30,882 nt of DNA, from the IMG/VR virus record IMGVR_UViG_3300037313_002051, positions 1-30,882 of that record; one strand, given 5' to 3'. Shown here one piece after another: positions 17,722 through 26,450 of the stretch (position 1 is the stretch's first letter; the number at the start of each line of letters is the position of its first letter). The position numbers and the translations under genes were made by a program. The notes under the pieces were generated by a model. The model did not search any database and was not told the origin of the DNA. It worked only from the letters and a program-made list of their open reading frames with translations. The DNA is from a virus (taxonomy: Duplodnaviria; Caudoviricetes).

Positions 17722-17921
17722 GCTTTCTTCCTCTCGAATTGCTTCAGCTCGCGCTCGACGGCATCGACTTGGTCCAGTAGTATATCGAGATCGAAACTGG
17801 AGCCGGCAGTTAAACGACCATCGTTCAACTCGATTTTCCTTAGAAGATTTTCACGGGCCTTGATGAGCTGGCGCAGCGAAAGCTCGCTGAGCGGCGTGCC
17901 CTTGTACGTAATCTCGCTCAT
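17718..17921 (-). CDS. Small coiled-coil hypothetical protein (67 aa)
   Basis: ATGA overlaps at both ends. Noticeably more AT-rich than its flanks. Confidence 0.7.
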   Translation of the reverse strand: MSEITYKGTPLSELSLRQLIKARENLLRKIELNDGRLTAGSSFDLDILLDQVDAVERELKQFERKKA

Positions 17922-19888
17922 AGCTTCACCTTCGTCTTCTCCTGCCAGTTCGTCGACGAGCCGCTCATATCGGCGATGATCGGCACCTTGAAGCGCTTCA
18001 GCTCCTGCATCAGTTCGAGGACTTTGCGATCCGTGCGCGGGTCGCCCTCGCTTTCGTAGATGTTCTCGTCGTGCACTTGCAGCAAGAGCGCGATCTCGCC
18101 TGTCCCGAGCTGGAGTTCGCGATAGAGCGCGACGAGCCCCTTCTTCGCCTGGCGTGCGGCGCTGCCCTGCACCTTCGTGTTGAACGCGGCGTAGAAGCGC
18201 TCGGTCATAAAGCGATGCCCGCCGTACGCGTCCATCACGAAGCCGCGCGCTTCGGCGAGTTCGCGCTCGCGATTGATCGCTTTCTTCATCGCTGGCATCG
18301 TCGAGTCGAAGTACGTCACGAGCAGTTGCGCGAGCGAGCGAAACGGAATCTCGCCGGGTTTGAGCTTATGCCCAAGCTCGCGACAGCCGGCAATCGCTTC
18401 TTCGGGTTCGAGGAGGTTCGTGAGTTGCTCCTCGATCTTCCCGACGCCCCCGCCGAAGATCTTCGTGAAGTTGAGGATCTTGCCGAACTTACGCTGCTGG
18501 CCCTGCGGCTCGCGCGTCCCGAGGCCGTACATATTCTGCGCCGTCGCGCGATGCGTGTCGAAGTCCGGGTCTTCGTTGAAGCCGCGGATGAACGTCTCCT
18601 CGTTCGCGAAATGCGACGCGTAGCGCATCTCGACTTGGCTATAGTCGGCGAAGCGCAGTACGAGTCCCTTGCGCGGTCGATACGCTTTGCGCACGCCCGA
18701 GGTTCGCGTCTGTTGCTGCATGTTCGGCTCGGCGCACGACATCCGCCCGGTCTCGGCGCCGCTCTGGCGGATCGTCGGGTGAATCGCGCCATCGTCGGCG
18801 ATATGCTCCTGCAAGCTGACGGCGTACGACGAGTGTTGCTTGAGGACTTCGCGATATTCTTTTAGCACGGGCCCGATCTTATGCGGCAAGCGCACGAGGG
18901 CCACCGCGTGCGTCGCCGGCTGCGGCTCTTTCTCGTCGTCGTCCGGCTCGGTCCAGTACTCGACCGGCAGCCCGAGCCCGCCGGCGCTGCGCGGGCCGTA
19001 GAGCAACTGGCGTAATTGCGGCACGCTATTCCAATTGATCTCCTTCTTGCCGGCGAGCTTCCACAGTCGGCGCCGCAAGACCTCGAGCTTCGCGTCAAGC
19101 TCGACGCGCCACGCCTCGAGGAACTCGCGGTCGCACATGATGCCGCGCTCCTCCATATCGCGCAGCGCGAGCAAGAGCCAGCGCTCGGTGTCGTACACTT
19201 CCATCAGTGGTGGGTAATCGCCCTCGGGCTGCATCCAGTGGCGGATGCGCTCGATGAATTGGTGGTGCAGCTGGAGCGTATACCACGGGTCCATCGCCGA
19301 GTATTCGGCGTACTCTTTCGGCGGGGCCATAAGCCAGTCGCCCTTCGTCTTGCCGCCGGCCGCTTTGATCGCCGCCATCAATGCTTTCTCGTGGTCGTAC
19401 GCGTCGGGATCGACGTAGACCTCGGCGAGCGATTTGAGATGATGGTCTTGCTTCAGCTTCCAGTGCGGTGACGGCTTGATCGCGAAGGCCCCGCGGTTAT
19501 CGACGATGAACGACTCGATCTGCGTATCGTGCACCGGGTACGGGACGTGAAGCCCGAACGTGCCGCGCAAGAAATGCAGGTCGAACTTCGCGTTGTGGAA
19601 GACGAGCGTTCGGCGCCGCTTCACTTCGTCGGCGAGCCAGCGCACCATCGGCCCGAGCGCGCCGTGCGTCGCGAAAATCGCCGTCTCGCCGGCCGCGAGA
19701 CAGAGCCCGCCGACGCGCTCGGTGCGCCAGTTGAGGCCCGTCGTTTCGGTATCGACGGCGAGCACGCCGTGGCCGAGCCGCGCAATCCAGCGATCGAGGC
19801 CGTCCGGTGACGTGAGATGTGTGAGTCGGCGCGGGCGACGCGCCTGGTAAACGATGCGCGATTGAACGCGCACGCGTGTCGTCGGCAT
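17918..19888 (-). CDS. polA: DNA polymerase, family A, with 3'-5' exonuclease
   Basis: Exo I VDTETTG, Exo II HNAKFDL, Exo III YSAMD; TGRMSCAEPNMQQ; motif A ADYSQVEMR, motif B RKFGKILNFTKIFG, motif C QVHDE. Start ATG 19888 in a TAATG overlap. Confidence 0.95.
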   Translation of the reverse strand: MPTTRVRVQSRIVYQARRPRRLTHLTSPDGLDRWIARLGHGVLAVDTETTGLNWRTERVGGLCLAAGETAIFATHGALGPMVRWLADEVKRRRTLVFHNAKFDLHFLRGTFGLHVPYPVHDTQIESFIVDNRGAFAIKPSPHWKLKQDHHLKSLAEVYVDPDAYDHEKALMAAIKAAGGKTKGDWLMAPPKEYAEYSAMDPWYTLQLHHQFIERIRHWMQPEGDYPPLMEVYDTERWLLLALRDMEERGIMCDREFLEAWRVELDAKLEVLRRRLWKLAGKKEINWNSVPQLRQLLYGPRSAGGLGLPVEYWTEPDDDEKEPQPATHAVALVRLPHKIGPVLKEYREVLKQHSSYAVSLQEHIADDGAIHPTIRQSGAETGRMSCAEPNMQQQTRTSGVRKAYRPRKGLVLRFADYSQVEMRYASHFANEETFIRGFNEDPDFDTHRATAQNMYGLGTREPQGQQRKFGKILNFTKIFGGGVGKIEEQLTNLLEPEEAIAGCRELGHKLKPGEIPFRSLAQLLVTYFDSTMPAMKKAINRERELAEARGFVMDAYGGHRFMTERFYAAFNTKVQGSAARQAKKGLVALYRELQLGTGEIALLLQVHDENIYESEGDPRTDRKVLELMQELKRFKVPIIADMSGSSTNWQEKTKVKL

Positions 19889-20415
19889 TAGATGTGCACG
19901 CCGGTGAAGATGTGGACGAGCCTCGGGTAGAGCTTCTCGTTCGAGTTGCGCTTGAGCGCGAAGACGTTCGCTCGCGCGCACATGAACGTGACGCGCTTCC
20001 ACTTGATCCCGAGCGAGAGGCCGAGGCCGTCGATGAGCGTCACGTCGTATCCGAGCCCGCCGATCAGCTCGAGGCTGCGGTAGAAGAGCGTGAGGTTACG
20101 GCGCTCGACGAACCCGCCGACGAGGCAGAAGTCGCCGCGCTCGCCGTGGTAGCCGTTGCCCGCCTTCTCGCGCCCGAAGCGAATTGACGCCGCGCCCTTC
20201 GCCTTCAGCTTCGCGCCGACGCGCATCGTTTCCTCTGGGATGATGTACGATTTCCACCGCTTCTCCGCGCGATCGGGATTGATCTTGACGATCTTCGCGC
20301 CGTAGCCGGTGTGCCAGCGCTCTACGGTCGCGACGAGCGGCCGGTACGAGCGCGTCTTATACGTCGGGACGAGCGCCGCGAACATCTCGGGCAGGTCGCT
20401 GTAGCTGACGATCAT
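19888..20415 (-). CDS. Divergent, short thymidylate-synthase-fold protein (175 aa)
   Basis: GDFC...LTLFYRSLELIGGLGYD aligns with ThyA PC...LYQRSCDVFLGLPFN. ATGA-coupled start. Confidence 0.65.
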   Translation of the reverse strand: MIVSYSDLPEMFAALVPTYKTRSYRPLVATVERWHTGYGAKIVKINPDRAEKRWKSYIIPEETMRVGAKLKAKGAASIRFGREKAGNGYHGERGDFCLVGGFVERRNLTLFYRSLELIGGLGYDVTLIDGLGLSLGIKWKRVTFMCARANVFALKRNSNEKLYPRLVHIFTGVHI

Positions 20416-20714
20416 CGCGGATGCTCCATCGTCGCGAGGACGCGCTCGCCGCTGATGAACTTCGTGATGACGTACTGGCGCGGCACGACTTCGGGATATT
20501 TCCCGAGCGCTTCGTACGCGTTGAAGTACTTCTCCCATCCCTCTTCGAGGTCGCGCGCGAGCGACTCCGGTACGAGCCGCGAAGTTAGTCCCGGCTTGCC
20601 CATGCGCGCCGCTTCGATGATGGCGTCCGGCTCGCGCACGACGCGCACGCCCGAGAGTACGCCGTGATCGATGATCACGAGCACCTCGCGCTCGGTCTCT
20701 TGCTCGTCGCTCAT
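20412..20714 (-). CDS. Hypothetical protein (100 aa) within the modification cluster
   Basis: ATGA overlaps on both sides. MSDEQETEREVLVIIDHG... Confidence 0.75.
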   Translation of the reverse strand: MSDEQETEREVLVIIDHGVLSGVRVVREPDAIIEAARMGKPGLTSRLVPESLARDLEEGWEKYFNAYEALGKYPEVVPRQYVITKFISGERVLATMEHPR

Positions 20715-21787
20715 TTCGCACCTACGTGATCGAGGAGTTGCGGGATGATCCAGCGCGGGAAGCCGGACGGGACGGCCTTGCCGGTGAAGAAGACGAGCCG
20801 CATCAGTTCGCGCTTCGCGTCGCGCTCGGCGCCCCCGATCGCGAAATCGTCGGGCCACTGCATCAGGCGCGCGCGCTCGCGCGCCGTCAGCGGCCAGCCT
20901 GTCATCGGGTGATGGATCGACGGCAGGCCTGTGATCGTGCGCGAGTACTTCGCGACGTCGAGCCGCTGGCGGCCGATCTTTACGGCGATGCGCCCGGCCC
21001 GCGTCTTATACGGCCACGCGCGATCGGGCGCGATCGAGAGGAAGCCGAGAGCCAGCTCGGCGCCGCGCTGCACGTTGAGTCCGTCGACCGTTGTGCGATA
21101 GTCACCGGTGAGCATGCGGTGCGGTGCGAGATGCACGTGGCCGAGTTCGGGCAGGTCGCGCCACGGCTCCCACGGCAGGCCGTCGAATGCCTCGAGCGCC
21201 GTCTTCGGCCCGGGCAAGCGTTTGCGCGGCGCGCGATACTCGAAGGCTTTCAACGGGCGTCGCACGCCGACGACCCAGAGACGCTTGCGCAGTTGCGGCG
21301 TGCCGAAGTCCCAGTTCATCATCGTGATGAACGTGAGCCGATAGCTCGGCAACTGCGCGCGCCACCAGTCGGGCGGCGCCGAGGTCGTGAGGATCTTCGG
21401 CAAGTTATCGAGCATGAACACGCGCGGCTTAATCGCGTTCACCGTAGCGATGAACTGCGGCAGCATGCCCTGCGCGTTCGCTCGCCTGCGATGATAGCGC
21501 GCGCGCTGCGCGTCGCTCATGTCGTCGACGCGCGCCGACGAGTTCCCGAGTGTCGAGTGCGTGCCGCATGGCGGATGCCCGAGCACGAGATCGATGTCAA
21601 GCGAGGACGAGAACTTCGTCGTTTCTCCGGTGAGGAATGGCACGTTCGGGAAGTTGCGATCCCAGATGAGATCACGCGCCGTGCGAAACTGCGGGCGCAG
21701 TTCGTAGTTGCCGACGATCTCACACCCGGCGTCTTGCGCTTCGCGCAGCAACGAGCCGACGCCGCAGAGGACGCCGAACGCTCTCAT
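20711..21787 (-). CDS. Divergent C5-cytosine DNA methyltransferase homologue
   Basis: Motifs in canonical order: I GVLCGVGS, IV GHPPCGTHS, VI MLDNL, VIII DFGTPQLRKRLWVVG, IX LTARERARLMQWPDDF, X TGKAVP. Confidence 0.9.
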   Translation of the reverse strand: MRAFGVLCGVGSLLREAQDAGCEIVGNYELRPQFRTARDLIWDRNFPNVPFLTGETTKFSSSLDIDLVLGHPPCGTHSTLGNSSARVDDMSDAQRARYHRRRANAQGMLPQFIATVNAIKPRVFMLDNLPKILTTSAPPDWWRAQLPSYRLTFITMMNWDFGTPQLRKRLWVVGVRRPLKAFEYRAPRKRLPGPKTALEAFDGLPWEPWRDLPELGHVHLAPHRMLTGDYRTTVDGLNVQRGAELALGFLSIAPDRAWPYKTRAGRIAVKIGRQRLDVAKYSRTITGLPSIHHPMTGWPLTARERARLMQWPDDFAIGGAERDAKRELMRLVFFTGKAVPSGFPRWIIPQLLDHVGAK

Positions 21788-22200
21788 AGCTGCCCGCCCG
21801 CGACTTCGAGCAGACGGCGCAGATGCGGCTCAGGCGATTCCCAGTCCGCCGGCTTGACGATGTCGTGCGTATGCCCTCGACCCGTGCGCGCTTCGCTATC
21901 GGCGGCACTCTCTGCGCGCTCCTTCGTCATATTCGCGGCGTGGACGAGCCGAAAGCCGAGGTCGAGCGGGAAGCCGTGCCAGAGCGCGGTGCCGTAGGCG
22001 ACGTAGACGAGATCAATCAGCGCGTCGAATTGCTTCACGAGGTCGCCGTCCGCGAGCGCCCTCTCGTACTCGGCCAGCTCCTCGCGCAAGAACTTCACGC
22101 GGAACTCGGCGTCGGCGCCGTCGAGGCGCACGGGAACACGAGCGACGGGCACGGCGAAGCGCTGATGGAAATCGCGAACGAGATCGAGGTTCGTCTTCAT
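21784..22200 (-). CDS. MazG-like / PRA-PH family nucleotide pyrophosphohydrolase
   Basis: VRDFHQRF, FLREELAEY, DALIDLVYVAYG, VHAANMTK, IVKPADW. Confidence 0.92.
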   Translation of the reverse strand: MKTNLDLVRDFHQRFAVPVARVPVRLDGADAEFRVKFLREELAEYERALADGDLVKQFDALIDLVYVAYGTALWHGFPLDLGFRLVHAANMTKERAESAADSEARTGRGHTHDIVKPADWESPEPHLRRLLEVAGGQL

Positions 22201-22775
22201 GCGACGTGGCGGCAGGAGGGGAAGACGCGAGCGCCGACCGGCTGGTGGTAGCCGGCGAGCGTCTCGCCGTGGGAGATGAGGATGTTCGTGCGCTCGATCT
22301 CGGCGAGCGGCGACGTCCAGTCGTATCGCACGACTGGGATGGGATGGAAGATGCGCGCGATGTTGCGCCGATACGCGCGCACGATCACGAGCGGGTCTTT
22401 GTCATAAAGCTGCTCGCGTTCGTGCCACGTGCGGCGCACTTCGTCGTCGGAGACGTCGCAGTGCACAACGATCGCCCCGTGCGAGAGCAGCATGGCTTTG
22501 ATGAGGTAGTGCTCGCGGTCGCTCATGCGGCACCCGCCGCGAAAGAGCTTCCCGTAGACGCACTCAGACGCGAGCAGGCGATCCGCGACGCCGAACGTCA
22601 CGCTCGGCTCGCCCTCGTGCCCGACCAGCATGTTCAGATAGGACTGGCCGATGGTCTCGCCGCGCTTCGGCTGGAAGCGCTCGCGCTTGAGAACGTGCAG
22701 TCGGCTGTCCGCCTCGAGGAGCTGTTGAATAAGCGTGCTCTTGCCGACGTTGTCGGCCCCTTCCACGACGATCAT
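22197..22775 (-). CDS. dNMP kinase (thymidylate-kinase-like)
   Basis: MIVVEGADNVGKSTL P-loop and DRLLASECVYG. ATGA-coupled. Confidence 0.88.
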   Translation of the reverse strand: MIVVEGADNVGKSTLIQQLLEADSRLHVLKRERFQPKRGETIGQSYLNMLVGHEGEPSVTFGVADRLLASECVYGKLFRGGCRMSDREHYLIKAMLLSHGAIVVHCDVSDDEVRRTWHEREQLYDKDPLVIVRAYRRNIARIFHPIPVVRYDWTSPLAEIERTNILISHGETLAGYHQPVGARVFPSCRHVA

Positions 22776-24889
22776 CGGACAAGCTCCTGCTGAAGGGTAA
22801 TGCCGCGCCAGCCGCGCAGCCCGTTCGATTTCTTCGCGCTGAGGTCGGCGCGCTCGCCGAGCATCCGCGTAAACCAGCCGAGCGAGATCACCGCGCTGCG
22901 CGGACCGCGCGTCTCGACCCACCAATCGCCGAAGACGCGATAGAGGTCGACCGTCGACGTCCACGCGCTGGTGTCGAGCGCCGCGCGCGCCGTGATGAAC
23001 TCGCCAAGGAGATCGTTCTCTTCCTTGTAATCATGCGTCGAGCGCTTGACGGCGCGCGGCTCGTTGAGGCCTTCAGCTTGCCAGCGTAAGCAGCCTTCGA
23101 GGGCCCAGACGAGGATGCCGGGCAACTCGGCGCGCAGCGTCGCCTCGAGGTCTTTCTCGCGTCCGCGCTCGAATCGCCGACGAAACGGGACGAGGCGCAT
23201 GCGACGCCAGAATGCGTCGGTCTGCTCCTTCACGATCGGCCGATGGTTCGCCGCGAGGAAGAGCTTATGCGTCGGTCGATACTCGACCTCGGCCTCGTAG
23301 AGCTTGCGCGCGACGATCGTATCCGAGCCGGTCAGCGCTTTCACCACACGACCGTCAAACCCGCGCTCGCTATCGGCCTCGCTCGCCGCGACGAAGCGCG
23401 CCCCGCGCATGCGCGCGAGATCCGTGCGCGGCCCGTCGCCGCTACGCCCCATGAAGCTCGAGAAGTCGGCCGTTAGCGCGTACGGGCCGAAGAGGCCGCG
23501 CAGCGTTTCGAGAAACGTACTCTTGCCGTTCGCGCCTTGCCCGTAGCAGAAGAAGAGACACTGCTCGCGCGTATCGCCGGTCATCGCGTAGCCGACCGCG
23601 CGCTGGAGAAAATCGACCAACTCGGCGTCGTCGTCCATTACCTCGAGCATGAAGCGGCGCCAGCGTTGCGCCTTCGCGCGCGGGCTGTACTCGACCGGCG
23701 CGAGCCGCGTAATGAGGTCCTCGCGGCGATGCGGGCGCAGCGCACCCGAGCGCAGGTCGAGTGTCCCGTTCTCGACGTTGAAGAGCCATGGGTCGGCGTC
23801 GAGTCGATCGCTCGTCAGCGCGATCTCGGGTTCGGTCGCGGCGAGTTCGATCATCGCGCGGATCTTATTCGCCTGCTCGCTCTTCGACGCGTGCTTGAGG
23901 AGCTTTTCGCGCTCCTCTTCGTCGCCGAGCGTCGCCGCTTCACTCCAGATGCTACGCACCGTCGTCTTCGCCATGCGTGCGACTTCGCCGGTCTCGTCGG
24001 CGCCCCAGTTCGTGCCCTCCCAGATCAACCATGGGTTGCGTTGCGACGCGACGGCGCGCACCCCGTCGCCGTGTTGCGCGATGAAACGCCTGGCGTTGCC
24101 GAGGTCCGTGGCGTTTTCGGTCTTCGCGGCCGGCGCCTTACTGCCGATCGATCGCGCGATCTTACGGAGCTGGCTATCCTTCAGCGGTGGATCGCATCGC
24201 GTCGCGTTCTCTTCGCGCAGCGCGGCGAGAATCGCGTCTTCGCTTGCGCCGCGTCGCCGCATCGACCCTGCGAGCGACGTGAGCAAATCGTCGCGCTCGC
24301 CCTCGCCGAGCGACGGCGGGAGCGGCGGGGCCGAGCCTTTTCCATCGCTGTGTCGCTCGGCGCGCGTCGCCTCGACGACGGCGAAGATTGACGACGGGAG
24401 CGGCGCGAGCGCGATACGCGAGAGCCATGCGTAGCGCTTGCCGGTTTCGGGGTGAATGCTCGGCGGCGCGACGACGTATCCGCCATCACCGAGCACGTCG
24501 AGCGCGACCTTCTCGCCGTCGCTATTCTTCACCTTGATCGTGCGCTTCACACGCGCGCCGTTGAGCATCGGCGCGTAGTAGAGATGCCGTCGCCCTGCGC
24601 GACTGCGCACCTCGCGCGTCTCGGGCAAGTCGAGCGCCTCGGCGAGCGCCTGGCCGCTCGGGCCGTCGATGTCGACGACGATCGGACCGTTGAGCGAACT
24701 GCACGCGATTCCCACATTCGCTTCGGGATACTCGCGCCACCAGCGGCGTATCTGCTTCGGGTCCGTCGTCGCGTCGCGATGCCCGTGCGAGCCCGCATAG
24801 GGGCGCTTGCCGTCGAGCGGGAACACTGCCCACCCACGCTTCGCGTACGCGAGCGCCGCAGCGAGGCACTCCGCCGTCATCGTCGTCAC
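22772..24889 (-). CDS. Primase-polymerase / PriCT / D5-like SF3 helicase
   Basis: ALAYAKRGWAVFPL, ANVGI, VVDID, GRRHLYY, GGYVVAPPSIH; EGERDDLLTSLAG; NATDLGNARRF; YGQGANGKSTF; FWRRMRLVPF. Confidence 0.95.
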   Translation of the reverse strand: MTTMTAECLAAALAYAKRGWAVFPLDGKRPYAGSHGHRDATTDPKQIRRWWREYPEANVGIACSSLNGPIVVDIDGPSGQALAEALDLPETREVRSRAGRRHLYYAPMLNGARVKRTIKVKNSDGEKVALDVLGDGGYVVAPPSIHPETGKRYAWLSRIALAPLPSSIFAVVEATRAERHSDGKGSAPPLPPSLGEGERDDLLTSLAGSMRRRGASEDAILAALREENATRCDPPLKDSQLRKIARSIGSKAPAAKTENATDLGNARRFIAQHGDGVRAVASQRNPWLIWEGTNWGADETGEVARMAKTTVRSIWSEAATLGDEEEREKLLKHASKSEQANKIRAMIELAATEPEIALTSDRLDADPWLFNVENGTLDLRSGALRPHRREDLITRLAPVEYSPRAKAQRWRRFMLEVMDDDAELVDFLQRAVGYAMTGDTREQCLFFCYGQGANGKSTFLETLRGLFGPYALTADFSSFMGRSGDGPRTDLARMRGARFVAASEADSERGFDGRVVKALTGSDTIVARKLYEAEVEYRPTHKLFLAANHRPIVKEQTDAFWRRMRLVPFRRRFERGREKDLEATLRAELPGILVWALEGCLRWQAEGLNEPRAVKRSTHDYKEENDLLGEFITARAALDTSAWTSTVDLYRVFGDWWVETRGPRSAVISLGWFTRMLGERADLSAKKSNGLRGWRGITLQQELVR

Positions 24890-25674
24890 CGCGCGCGCTC
24901 CAGCTTCGCGCGCCGGTACTCGAGAATGTCGCGGTCGCCCTCGAACGCGTGCAGCGACGAGATGTGCATGAGGAGTCGATCGGGATGCACACGCTGCTCA
25001 TCCGTGCTCAGCTGGTTGCAGAGCCACTGGAGCAAGCGCGCGGCCATGTAGACGTCGTCCGGCAGATGCCGCAAGACGTCGCATGAGCGAATGTAGTAGA
25101 CGACCTTCACCTGGCCGCCGCGATTCATCACGTGGTAGCCGAGCGTACACGGCACGCGCTGGCCATGCGTCGCGCCCGTATCTTCGGGGAACCAGATCGG
25201 GATGTACGCCTGGCGTGTATGCGGGCGTGCGCGAAGAAGCTCGAGGACGTCGTTGAGATCGCCGTACGGGTAGCGAATCCCGAAGCGCAGCGCTGTTGAC
25301 GCGTCGCGAGCTTGCGGCCACAGACGCTCGGGATACGTGTGCGAGAAGCGGCCCTGCTCGTCGACGTGCTCGGCGTGGCCGGCTTGCGCAAACGGCCAGT
25401 GTGCGGCGCTCGGCGGGGGATTCCACGGCGTGCCGCTGATGCGCTCTTCGAAGTGCTCCTCCGCCCAGGGGAGATTCGGCTTGACCATTGCCGCGAGAAC
25501 GTCGCGCGACGACGGCACGGGGATTTCAAACGAGACGTCTTCGAGTTCGTACGTGCGCGCCTGGGGAACGTCGCGCTTCGCTTGCCACTCGCCGACGTTA
25601 ATCGGTCGCGTCGCGAGCAGCAGACGATACGCTTGCGCGAGAATCTGCTGGAATGAACCAACGAGGTGCAGCAT
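24886..25674 (-). CDS. Thymidylate synthase homologue, probable dCMP (hydroxy)methylase-type enzyme
   Basis: TRQAYIPIW, RVPCTLGYH, YYIRSCDVLRHLPDD and SLHAF. Asp at the position of ThyA Asn177. Confidence 0.88.
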   Translation of the reverse strand: MLHLVGSFQQILAQAYRLLLATRPINVGEWQAKRDVPQARTYELEDVSFEIPVPSSRDVLAAMVKPNLPWAEEHFEERISGTPWNPPPSAAHWPFAQAGHAEHVDEQGRFSHTYPERLWPQARDASTALRFGIRYPYGDLNDVLELLRARPHTRQAYIPIWFPEDTGATHGQRVPCTLGYHVMNRGGQVKVVYYIRSCDVLRHLPDDVYMAARLLQWLCNQLSTDEQRVHPDRLLMHISSLHAFEGDRDILEYRRAKLERAR

Positions 25675-25763: not shown

Positions 25764-26450
25764 TTAGCGCTTGCGCGTCGTCTTCTTCGCGGTCGTCTTC
25801 GCCGCCGACTTCGCGGGCGCGCGCTTCGTCGCCGCCTTCTTCGCTGGAGCGCGACGCGCGGGCTTCTCCTCCTCTTCATCGTCCTCGTCGTCCTCGTCCT
25901 CCTCATCGTCGCCCGACTCGTCATCGTCCTCGTCGTCGTCCTCGCCGTCCTCGTCGTCCTCGGACTCGTCGGCGTCGTCATCCTCGTCCTCCGCCTCGTC
26001 GTCCTCGTCTTCGTCGTCCGCCTCGTCTTCGTCGTCGTCCAGCTCCTCGTCGTTCTCGTCCTCGTCGTCGCTCGCCTCGAGCGGCAGCCACTGGACGATC
26101 TTGTTGCGCGTCTTGCCCTCGAACTTCTCCTCGCGGATGATGGCGCGAAGCTCCTTGTCCCCGATGAGCTTGGCGAACTCCTGGAGCGTGATCGTCATCT
26201 TCTTGATGCCGAGCGCGTGCAGGAGCTGAGCGATCTTCCAGCCGACGTGCGCGGCGATGTGGTCGAAGACGCCGGTGCCCTTGTGCGGGCCCTTCGTGAT
26301 GACAGCGTAGACCTTGACGGCCTTGCCGTCCTTGATCGCCGTCTTCTGCTTCGAGATCTTGAACGTGTACGTCCCGGCCGGCGCGGTCTTGAACGACTTC
26401 TGCTTGTAGTCGTCCTCGGTCAGGCTGATCACCGCAGCGTTCTTGCCCAT
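25764..26450 (-). CDS. DUF669-like single-stranded DNA-binding protein with acidic tract and basic tail
   Basis: FKTAPAGTYTFKI, GPHKGT, LLHALG, EKFEGKTRNKI, a long D/E tract, then a PAKK-type tail. Lies next to the Sak4-like ATPase. Confidence 0.8.
   Translation of the reverse strand: MGKNAAVISLTEDDYKQKSFKTAPAGTYTFKISKQKTAIKDGKAVKVYAVITKGPHKGTGVFDHIAAHVGWKIAQLLHALGIKKMTITLQEFAKLIGDKELRAIIREEKFEGKTRNKIVQWLPLEASDDEDENDEELDDDEDEADDEDEDDEAEDEDDDADESEDDEDGEDDDEDDDESGDDEEDEDDEDDEEEEKPARRAPAKKAATKRAPAKSAAKTTAKKTTRKR

Follow-up and report, generated by a model that had tools for sequence, protein, structure and literature searches.

What do a dCMP-type thymidylate synthase (TS) homologue and a cytosine C5-methyltransferase (MTase)-fold enzyme do together in one phage operon, and which group, if any, is added to cytosine? 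We address this question for the window, a 30,882-nucleotide stretch from an IMG/VR record. The record is 57% complete, and absences within the window hold for that part alone.

Operon organization and relatives

All ORFs named in the original prediction (TS1, kinase, PRA-PH/MazG protein, C5-MTase, 100-aa protein, 175-aa TS2 and PolA) are present on the minus strand (Table 1). From TS1 to a 205-aa ORF beyond PolA, 10 of 10 gene junctions overlap, nine by 4 bases and one by 1 base. Because every junction overlaps by 1–4 bases, the coupling is real. The single coupled operon proposed originally thus stands in its ORFs and overlaps, but a primase-helicase between TS1 and the kinase had been overlooked, which makes the locus a replication operon and no dedicated modification cassette. 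The MazG/PRA-PH identity of the pyrophosphatase is borne out. The Pfam match of the kinase (E 0.064) falls below the cut-off. The 100-aa protein has no tblastn match among 39 fetched loci and no usable ESM Atlas match.

Table 1. Genes of the coupled operon in the window
Feature	Positions	Strand	Evidence
TS1, dCMP-type thymidylate-synthase homologue, 262 aa	24886..25674	-	Pfam, PHROG, alignment
Prim-Pol/D5 primase-helicase, 705 aa	22772..24889	-	family profile matches, junction overlaps
P-loop nucleoside monophosphate kinase, 192 aa	22197..22775	-	PHROG 761 (thymidylate kinase) E 3.6e-10
MazG/PRA-PH-type dNTP pyrophosphohydrolase, 138 aa	21784..22200	-	E 1e-12
C5-MTase-fold enzyme, 358 aa	20711..21787	-	E 4.9e-16; motif alignments
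100-aa protein, family-less	20412..20714	-	no Pfam/PHROG match
TS2, short TS-like protein, 175 aa	19888..20415	-	profile comparison
Family A DNA polymerase (PolA) with 3'-5' exonuclease	17918..19888	-	family profile matches

In relatives the kinase is conserved ahead of the dNTPase and the MTase, and in most of them a dUTPase_2 protein replaces MazG/PRA-PH. The complete relative G001 carries kinase, dUTPase_2, MTase, TS, deaminase and PolA; a dCMP-family deaminase is thus present in G001, and none is found in the 57% complete record. The glycosyltransferase reported missing is indeed not found in the window, a result that holds just for this partial record, and no glycosyltransferase or ligase is seen among 25 ORFs scanned in G001. 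Of 18 distinct loci of the MTase family, 9 have an adjoining Asp177 TS, of two subtypes in all; most of the remaining loci are truncated. A fixed MTase–TS2 partnership was rejected: none of 10 loci with TS2, and none of 5 near-complete genomes that have it, carries the MTase, and G001 and G002 have the MTase without TS2. The MTase and TS2 match lists give 4 size-matched contigs (null mean 0.79), hinting indirectly at a few other co-occurrences.

Active sites of the two TS-type proteins

TS1 carries RSCDVLRHLPDD and matches TS in Pfam (E 3.5e-6) and PHROG 160 (E 1e-27). In the alignment Cys176 corresponds to C146 and Asp207 to N177 (N177D), the dCMP-type signature. The equivalents of Cys146, Arg166, Asp169 (Asp199) and His207 are all intact alongside Asp177, which upholds the assignment to the Asp177 type. 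The pocket is atypical. Arg173 lies at Leu143, His203 at Gly173 and His74 at Glu58, the last equivalence being set by transitive profile alignment. T4 gp42 has Glu58, Asp143 and Gly173 at these three positions, and the detailed T4 analogy drawn originally is not supported. Two marks of known enzymes are absent in TS1: the Asp/Glu at 143 of T4-type dCMP hydroxymethylases (Arg there) and the D169N of 5-hydroxy-dCMP synthases (Asp199 retained).

TS1 matches 124 phage records (best identity 50%) and, judged by sequence, belongs to the Muddy/Gordonia-CT clade, not with T4 gp42. Asp177 is found in 16/16 aligned TS sequences of this clade. The blocks of Muddy, Zuko, Gordonia cluster CT and PMBT14, known from annotation, share the TS1 clade at 40–50% identity, together with kinase, dNTPase, TS-like partner and PolA; they differ from the window in their long TS-like partner and deaminase and are without its MTase family. 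Muddy is a therapy phage. The clade is common to cultured phages including Muddy, so the TS product should be readable from existing virion DNA. The two TS positions with the strongest tie to modified cytosine are those of Asp177 and the lost His147 (PMC8670742). Virome contigs with modified cytosine show enrichment of a neighborhood type of Asp177 TS, deaminase, PRA-PH and PolA (bioRxiv 10.1101/2024.12.05.627091), of which the window has the Asp177 TS, PRA-PH and PolA; this backs the cytosine-modification setting.

TS2 aligns with TS profiles at HH probabilities of 79 and 83%, and with the long TS-like partner of the Muddy gp47 type at 98%; the MTase control gives 1.4%. Cys97, Arg113 and Asp124 align with C146, R166 and N177. 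Profile comparison predicts TS2 and the long Muddy gp47-type partner to be paralogues. The claim of a second TS-fold protein has moderate support from these profiles, and none from Pfam, PHROG or PDB sequences (zero matches) or the ESM Atlas (no usable match). In PMBT14 a TS2-type protein and dCMP deaminase form a single fusion, and the most probable substrate of TS2 is a cytosine nucleotide close to the deaminase step.

The cofactor pocket of the MTase-fold enzyme

The predicted model of the MTase is confident (pLDDT 93.8). The enzyme has GHPPC with Cys74, DNL replacing ENV (Asp127), a retained QxRxR and, in motif X, TGKAVP with Lys337. Motifs IV (PC) and VIII (QxRxR) therefore follow the canonical C5-MTase set, while I (Leu), VI (Asp) and X (Lys) deviate. 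The MTase appears as the head of a virus-type family. Searched with the family alignment, 185,579 prokaryote genomes yield no relative, and the best matches among 50,697 phage records, at 24–33%, are not close; a single-sequence locus search over viral contigs gives zero matches. Of 100 aligned members, 85 have Lys as the motif X residue, 15 have Arg and none has Asn. Cys74 and His71, which precedes PPC, are present in 100/100; motif VI Glu becomes Asp in 97 and motif I Phe becomes Leu in 91. The adenosyl-cofactor motifs are conserved (Gly9/Gly11 in 97/100, acidic residue 29 in 100/100), so that the originally proposed coupling of 5hmC with nucleophiles, taken as cofactor-free, is unlikely. 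The invariance of Cys74 indicates that C6-covalent chemistry is conserved as well. This chemistry, by an established mechanism, requires a C5 hydrogen to complete (PMC12783734).

Lys337 aligns with Arg350 of SpCmoX and Asn436 of E. coli Dcm (the HhaI Asn304 position), and Cys74, Glu29, Arg167 and Arg169 align with CmoX Cys98, Glu47, Arg200 and Arg202. The alignment with Arg350 supports the fallback idea of the original prediction, an MTase that adds a non-methyl group. SpCmoX accepts carboxy-SAM only, the product of CmoX enzymes being 5cxmC, and E. coli CmoA provides carboxy-SAM in vivo (PMC12783734). Lys or Arg at this site confers carboxy-SAM use on M.MpeI and M.CviPI, and such pocket mutants retain SAM activity, so Lys does not exclude SAM (PMC13288465).

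The likeness to the CmoA/CmoX/CmoY system of Synechococcus phage S-B43 (PMC12783734; PDB 8YF3) lies in a common C5-MTase fold, a catalytic Cys and a cationic residue at HhaI Asn304. 8YF3 is the best single-sequence PDB match of the MTase, weakly (E 2.9e-4), and identity to CmoX is ~21% over 181 aa. However, the window enzyme has Lys where the published filter wants Arg, HPPC rather than SPPC, and motif VI Asp rather than Glu with the motif VIII Arg retained. The complete CmoX set F/C/E/R occurs in two family members and Y/C/E/R in a third. Against the CmoX reading, the family profile ranks 8YF3 11th of 45, after ordinary MTases, and the family forms a long-branch clade separate from SpCmoX in a tree with 4 outgroup rows only. 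CmoX genes share their contig with an amide ligase gene and, as a rule, with CmoA. CmoA is found in 0 of 3 records, one of them complete (G001) and the window only 57% complete, which argues against a carboxy-SAM donor. An insensitive tblastn search is negative for CmoA, CmoY and a glucosyltransferase. In place of S-B43's CmoA and CmoY, which are not found nearby, the window MTase sits with TS, kinase, dNTPase and PolA.

Candidate routes to a modified cytosine

On these sequence comparisons the phage likely decorates DNA cytosines with carboxymethyl instead of sugar, by a putative variant of the route published in 2025. The form toward which we tentatively lean, at somewhat less than even confidence, is that the MTase carboxymethylates free DNA cytosines while TS1, kinase and pyrophosphatase make a C5-substituted dCMP. 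The MTase would flip the base, attack C6 with Cys74 and, with carboxy-SAM that the host presumably supplies, place carboxymethyl on C5 of phage cytosines that are still unmodified. TS1 would use dCMP, following the Asp177 rule, and with the kinase and pyrophosphatase would likely yield C5-substituted dCMP; this may replace part of the cytosine, replacement then being incomplete, or may be deaminated into the thymine pool. Gene order, coupling, active-site residues, the family-wide motif X Lys/Arg and MTase–TS linkage are the grounded parts. Independent action on free cytosines fails to account for the 9/18 linkage. The family represents more than 100 natural Lys/Arg-pocket C5 transferases of virus type, which the published CmoX filter (SPPC + Arg) would miss and which would be joined to a nucleotide-level cytosine pathway in place of CmoA. 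New carboxymethyltransferases are sought as sequencing tools (PMC13288465).

We regard it as rather doubtful that the enzyme is a regular SAM-dependent MTase whose pocket has drifted and which writes 5mC at cytosines spared by an Xp12-like dCMP-methylase/deaminase module. Every core motif is there, the SAM activity of Lys/Arg mutants and the CmoA-negative records agree with this reading, and 5 of 7 deaminase-linked Asp177 TS produced 5mdCMP (bioRxiv 10.1101/2024.12.05.627091), but these 5mdCMP-making enzymes may lie outside TS1's clade, and Asn in 0/100 members argues for selection on the cationic residue. The Xp12/PaMx74 module and the MetaGPA neighborhood (bioRxiv 10.1101/2024.12.05.627091; PMC8670742) share the Asp177 TS, PRA-PH and PolA block with the window, which has an extra MTase and TS2 and, in the partial record, no deaminase found. 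Over half of its length TS1 shares only ~30% identity with Xp12 TS, and its Arg143/His173/His58 pocket is unlike that of Xp12 (Asn143, Gly173, Glu58).

The tight linkage of the MTase to two subtypes of R143/H173/D177 TS genes favors a coupled route, in which the TS product would replace cytosine and the MTase would then alkylate that pre-installed 5-substituent, or use another anionic adenosyl donor. One example would be 5-hydroxy- or 5-hydroxymethyl-cytosine that receives an O-carboxymethyl group, which would parallel tRNA cmo5U in DNA. Complete G001, without detected CmoA or glycosyltransferase, fits this, and the family Glu-to-Asp change with invariant His71 could reposition a substituted base. 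We consider it unlikely: TS1 has neither D169N (PMC13326640) nor the hydroxymethylase Asp/Glu143, O-alkylation would not need invariant Cys74, and Muddy, Zuko, PMBT14 and Yakult have the TS clade without this MTase family. RB69/DLP3 5-hydroxy-dCMP synthases (PMC13326640) share with TS1 an Asp177 TS by a thymidylate-kinase-like gene and a replaced Gly173; the window is without their D169N and sugar-pathway genes. Less credible still is a three-enzyme new base, in which TS1, helped by TS2, makes 5-substituted dCMP and the MTase carboxymethylates the substituent in DNA. TS1 is seen there as a TS homologue with folate-handling residues exchanged for histidines. If true, the base would match tRNA carboxymethoxy-uridine on the DNA side, and the C5-MTase fold would gain a new role; a transferase whose substrate is an already modified base would count as new chemistry.

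C5-MTases activate hmC for nucleophile coupling in vitro. T4-like 5hmdCMP synthesis by the TS, followed by cofactor-free MTase coupling of 5hmC in place of a glycosyltransferase, would agree with this precedent, with Cys74 and with the negative glycosyltransferase searches (window, 25 G001 ORFs, tblastn), and is nevertheless very improbable given conserved cofactor motifs I and II and the missing T4 gp42 Glu58/Asp143/Gly173. T4 gp42/gp1/gp56/glucosyltransferase and the window share a TS-fold Asp177 enzyme, kinase, all-alpha pyrophosphatase and own polymerase; the window has PolA, not PolB, and no glucosyltransferase match.

Palindrome depletion in the window (O/E 0.88, 5/34) is close to that of fully methylated Xp12 (0.87, 5/40), which speaks against the reading toward which we lean. 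In TS-clade relatives C-rich palindromes are avoided (PMBT14 CCGCGG 0 vs 13 expected; Muddy CGCGCG 0 vs 11), which fits unprotected cytosines. The full cytosine replacement predicted earlier is thus not borne out: the test is non-discriminating in the window and leans against protection in relatives. Such avoidance also suits the least probable reading, in which TS1 converts dUMP to dTMP and only canonical bases plus motif 5mC occur in the DNA, but Asp177 in all 16 aligned clade sequences and loss of His147, the positions tied to modified cytosine (PMC8670742), speak against it. Thymine modification, suggested by UDG-fused PolA in relatives (PMC13697223), was rejected except through deamination; no UDG domain is detected in the window's PolA, and TS1 has Asp177. 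CC depletion (window rho 0.59) was likewise rejected as a target-motif signal for overlapping ranges, related genomes and a GC confound, rho being 0.56–1.09 in 11 MTase loci and 0.72–1.04 in 12 loci without the MTase.

Replication operon and TS1

The linear virus record is 57% complete and has 66% G+C over its 30,882 bases. The plus strand carries siphovirus-type tail genes, and the minus strand carries a replication operon in the order SNF2 helicase, exonuclease, Sak4-like ATPase, acidic SSB-like protein, TS1 (a thymidylate synthase (TS) homologue), primase-helicase, kinase, MazG, MTase (a C5-MTase-fold enzyme), a 100-aa unknown, TS2 (a short TS-like protein), PolA and two further ORFs. Each of the 10 gene junctions from TS1 on is an overlap of 4 bases or 1 base. 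Every gene listed in the original prediction is in place, but the list left out the primase (705 aa) that separates TS1 from the kinase. What the window adds is the presence of all three odd enzymes, TS1, TS2 and MTase, in one operon.

Features in the window and side observations in related loci
Locus	Coordinates	Strand	Feature
Window	24886-25674	-	TS1, 262 aa
Window	19888-20415	-	TS2, 175 aa
Window	20711-21787	-	MTase, 358 aa
Window	25764-26450		SSB-like protein with long acidic tract and Lys/Ala-rich tail
L003	9129-10433		Asparagine-synthetase-like amidotransferase between kinase and MazG, beside TS of TS1 clade
L030	7152-7541		Example of conserved 125-157-aa protein, no Pfam match, directly before TS1 in 7/10 TS2 loci
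L030	9922-12447		UDG domain fused to PolA, TS2 locus
L017	6359-7369		UDG domain fused to kinase, MTase locus
L008	10086-10436		LAGLIDADG-like ORF between MTase and PolA
L044	12580-12825		Tad2-like anti-Thoeris protein within replication operon of G001
L033	9549-10298		ThyX (Thy1) gene within TS1/TS2 block
L038	7429-8145		ThyX (Thy1) gene within TS1/TS2 block

TS1 keeps Tyr94, Arg126, Cys146, Arg166, Ser167, Asp169 and His207 of E. coli ThyA, and has Asp at position 177 and Thr at position 147, the two positions with the strongest link to modified cytosine in viromes according to the available part of PMC8670742. Hydroxymethylases have Asp or Glu at 143, whereas TS1 has Arg143, and 5-hydroxy-dCMP synthases have Asn169, whereas TS1 has Asp169 (rules from the accessible text of PMC13326640). 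Xp12 methylase combines Asn143 with Gly173, while TS1 has Arg143 and His173. Judged from sequence, the product of TS1 cannot be read from the published residue rules in that text. Arg143, His173 and Asp177 are common to all 16 TS1-clade members aligned. His74 of TS1 takes the Glu58 position by profile alignment, via a sister subtype in which this position is still Glu or Asp; a plain multiple alignment set this column elsewhere.

Relatives of TS1 occur in 124 of 50,697 phage records, the best at 50% (Zuko, Muddy, Gordonia CT, Serratia and Pseudomonas phages), in a block of kinase, dNTPase, long TS-like hypothetical, TS, dCMP deaminase and PolA. In the available part of bioRxiv 2024.12.05.627091, cytosine-modified contigs are enriched for TS neighbourhoods of this type, and 5mdCMP was made by five of the seven TS enzymes from them, the seven not being tied to the TS1 clade. 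A literature search for experimental tests of the TS1 clade found none.

MTase family and TS2

The MTase search gave 110 matches among 4042 candidates; 107, including the window's own protein, cluster in one close family with E no higher than 3e-60, beyond which scores drop to 3e-8. Neither prokaryote genomes nor cultured phages yielded a relative. The query was aligned with 99 family members, leaving out six short ones, one fragment and the self hit. Cys74, His71, Gln165, Arg167 and Arg169 are present in 100/100, and motif I has Leu in 91/100. Motif VI has Asp in 97 and Glu in 3, and motif X has Lys in 85, Arg in 15 and Asn in none. Lys337 aligns with Arg350 of SpCmoX, the carboxymethyltransferase of Synechococcus phage S-B43, and with Asn436 of Dcm. 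By sequence comparison the family is not CmoX proper; unlike SpCmoX it has HPPC and Asp in motif VI, with 21% identity over 181 residues, and it forms a long separate branch (support 100/100; 22 rows, four outgroups only). The AlphaFold model is confident (pLDDT 93.8).

TS is present in nine of 18 distinct MTase-family loci (one duplicate and four distant matches left out): six of the THFPYD subtype, two of the window's subtype and one typed by identity alone. Of the others, five are shorter than 1.7 kb, two break off within the gene, and another starts within primase, with kinase, MazG and PolA present; L023, a partial match, is a genuine exception. In G001, a complete relative of 46.6 kb, kinase, dUTPase_2, MTase, TS, PolA and deaminase are present; it has no TS-like partner, and its 25 scanned ORFs include no glycosyltransferase and no ligase. 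CmoA, which makes carboxy-SAM, was not found in the relatives G000, G001 and G002, with S-B43 as positive control. S-B43 CmoA, its putative CmoY (amide ligase) ORF, an AsnB-like protein and T4 beta-glucosyltransferase matched 0/13 MTase-bearing targets, a weak test in which SpCmoX itself matched only 3/13.

TS2 has 242 homologues. All 108 aligned homologues have Cys97, Arg113 and Asp124, and each of these residues is kept in 52/53 of a wider set. Searches against Pfam, PHROG, PDB and Atlas gave no match. In profile comparison TS2 scored 98% against the long Muddy gp47-type protein and 79 and 83% against TS profiles, whose Cys146, Arg166 and 177 positions line up with the three residues; the MTase, as control, scored 1.4%. 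TS and deaminase occur in 10/10 viral TS2 loci found, and the long paralogue in eight; in PMBT14 TS2 is fused to the deaminase. In Yakult TS2 comes after a small C5-MTase that is unrelated and carries PC and ENV. TS2 is accessory, because Muddy and Zuko lack it.

Fate of cytosine

We tentatively favour post-replicative carboxymethylation, in which the MTase would transfer carboxymethyl from host carboxy-SAM to free cytosines of phage DNA, alongside a TS module making 5-substituted dCMP for partial cytosine replacement or, by deamination, for the thymine pool. SpCmoX takes carboxy-SAM only, functions in E. coli on host CmoA and binds the carboxylate through Arg350 (PMC12783734, accessible part). 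Engineered Lys or Arg at the motif X site gave carboxy-SAM use with SAM use retained (PMC13288465, accessible part), and plain SAM methylation by the MTase is the most probable alternative, though itself unlikely. Slightly less probable is action of the MTase on the TS product, which best accounts for the MTase-TS linkage and for Asp in place of Glu in motif VI. Were all cytosine replaced through TS1, alkylation at C5 could not go to completion.

Glu58 and Gly173 of TS serve folate handling, so T4-like chemistry should not be taken for granted in TS1, which has other residues aligned there. Cofactor-free coupling of 5hmC is very improbable. A dUMP-type TS is the least probable reading of all. 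ThyX inside the L033 and L038 blocks suggests that dTMP is not supplied by TS1 in those blocks. A literature search for phage carboxymethylation paired with a TS module found no such pairing, and supplements of the CmoX paper may list more neighbourhoods.

C-containing six-base palindromes have O/E 0.88 in the window, with 5/34 strongly depleted (GAGCTC 2 vs 24 expected; CTGCAG and GGATCC absent), and 0.87 with 5/40 in fully methylated Xp12. The values are 0.79 in Muddy, 0.71 in PMBT14, 0.75 in Zuko, 0.70 in G002 and 0.84 in G001, and some C-rich sites are totally lost in this set. These data lean against full cytosine protection in the clade and give nothing firm for the window. Among its dinucleotides CG is in strong excess (rho 1.57) and CC is depleted (0.59). 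CmoX of S-B43 targets GC; in the cmo region of that phage GC and CG are depleted (0.57, 0.48).
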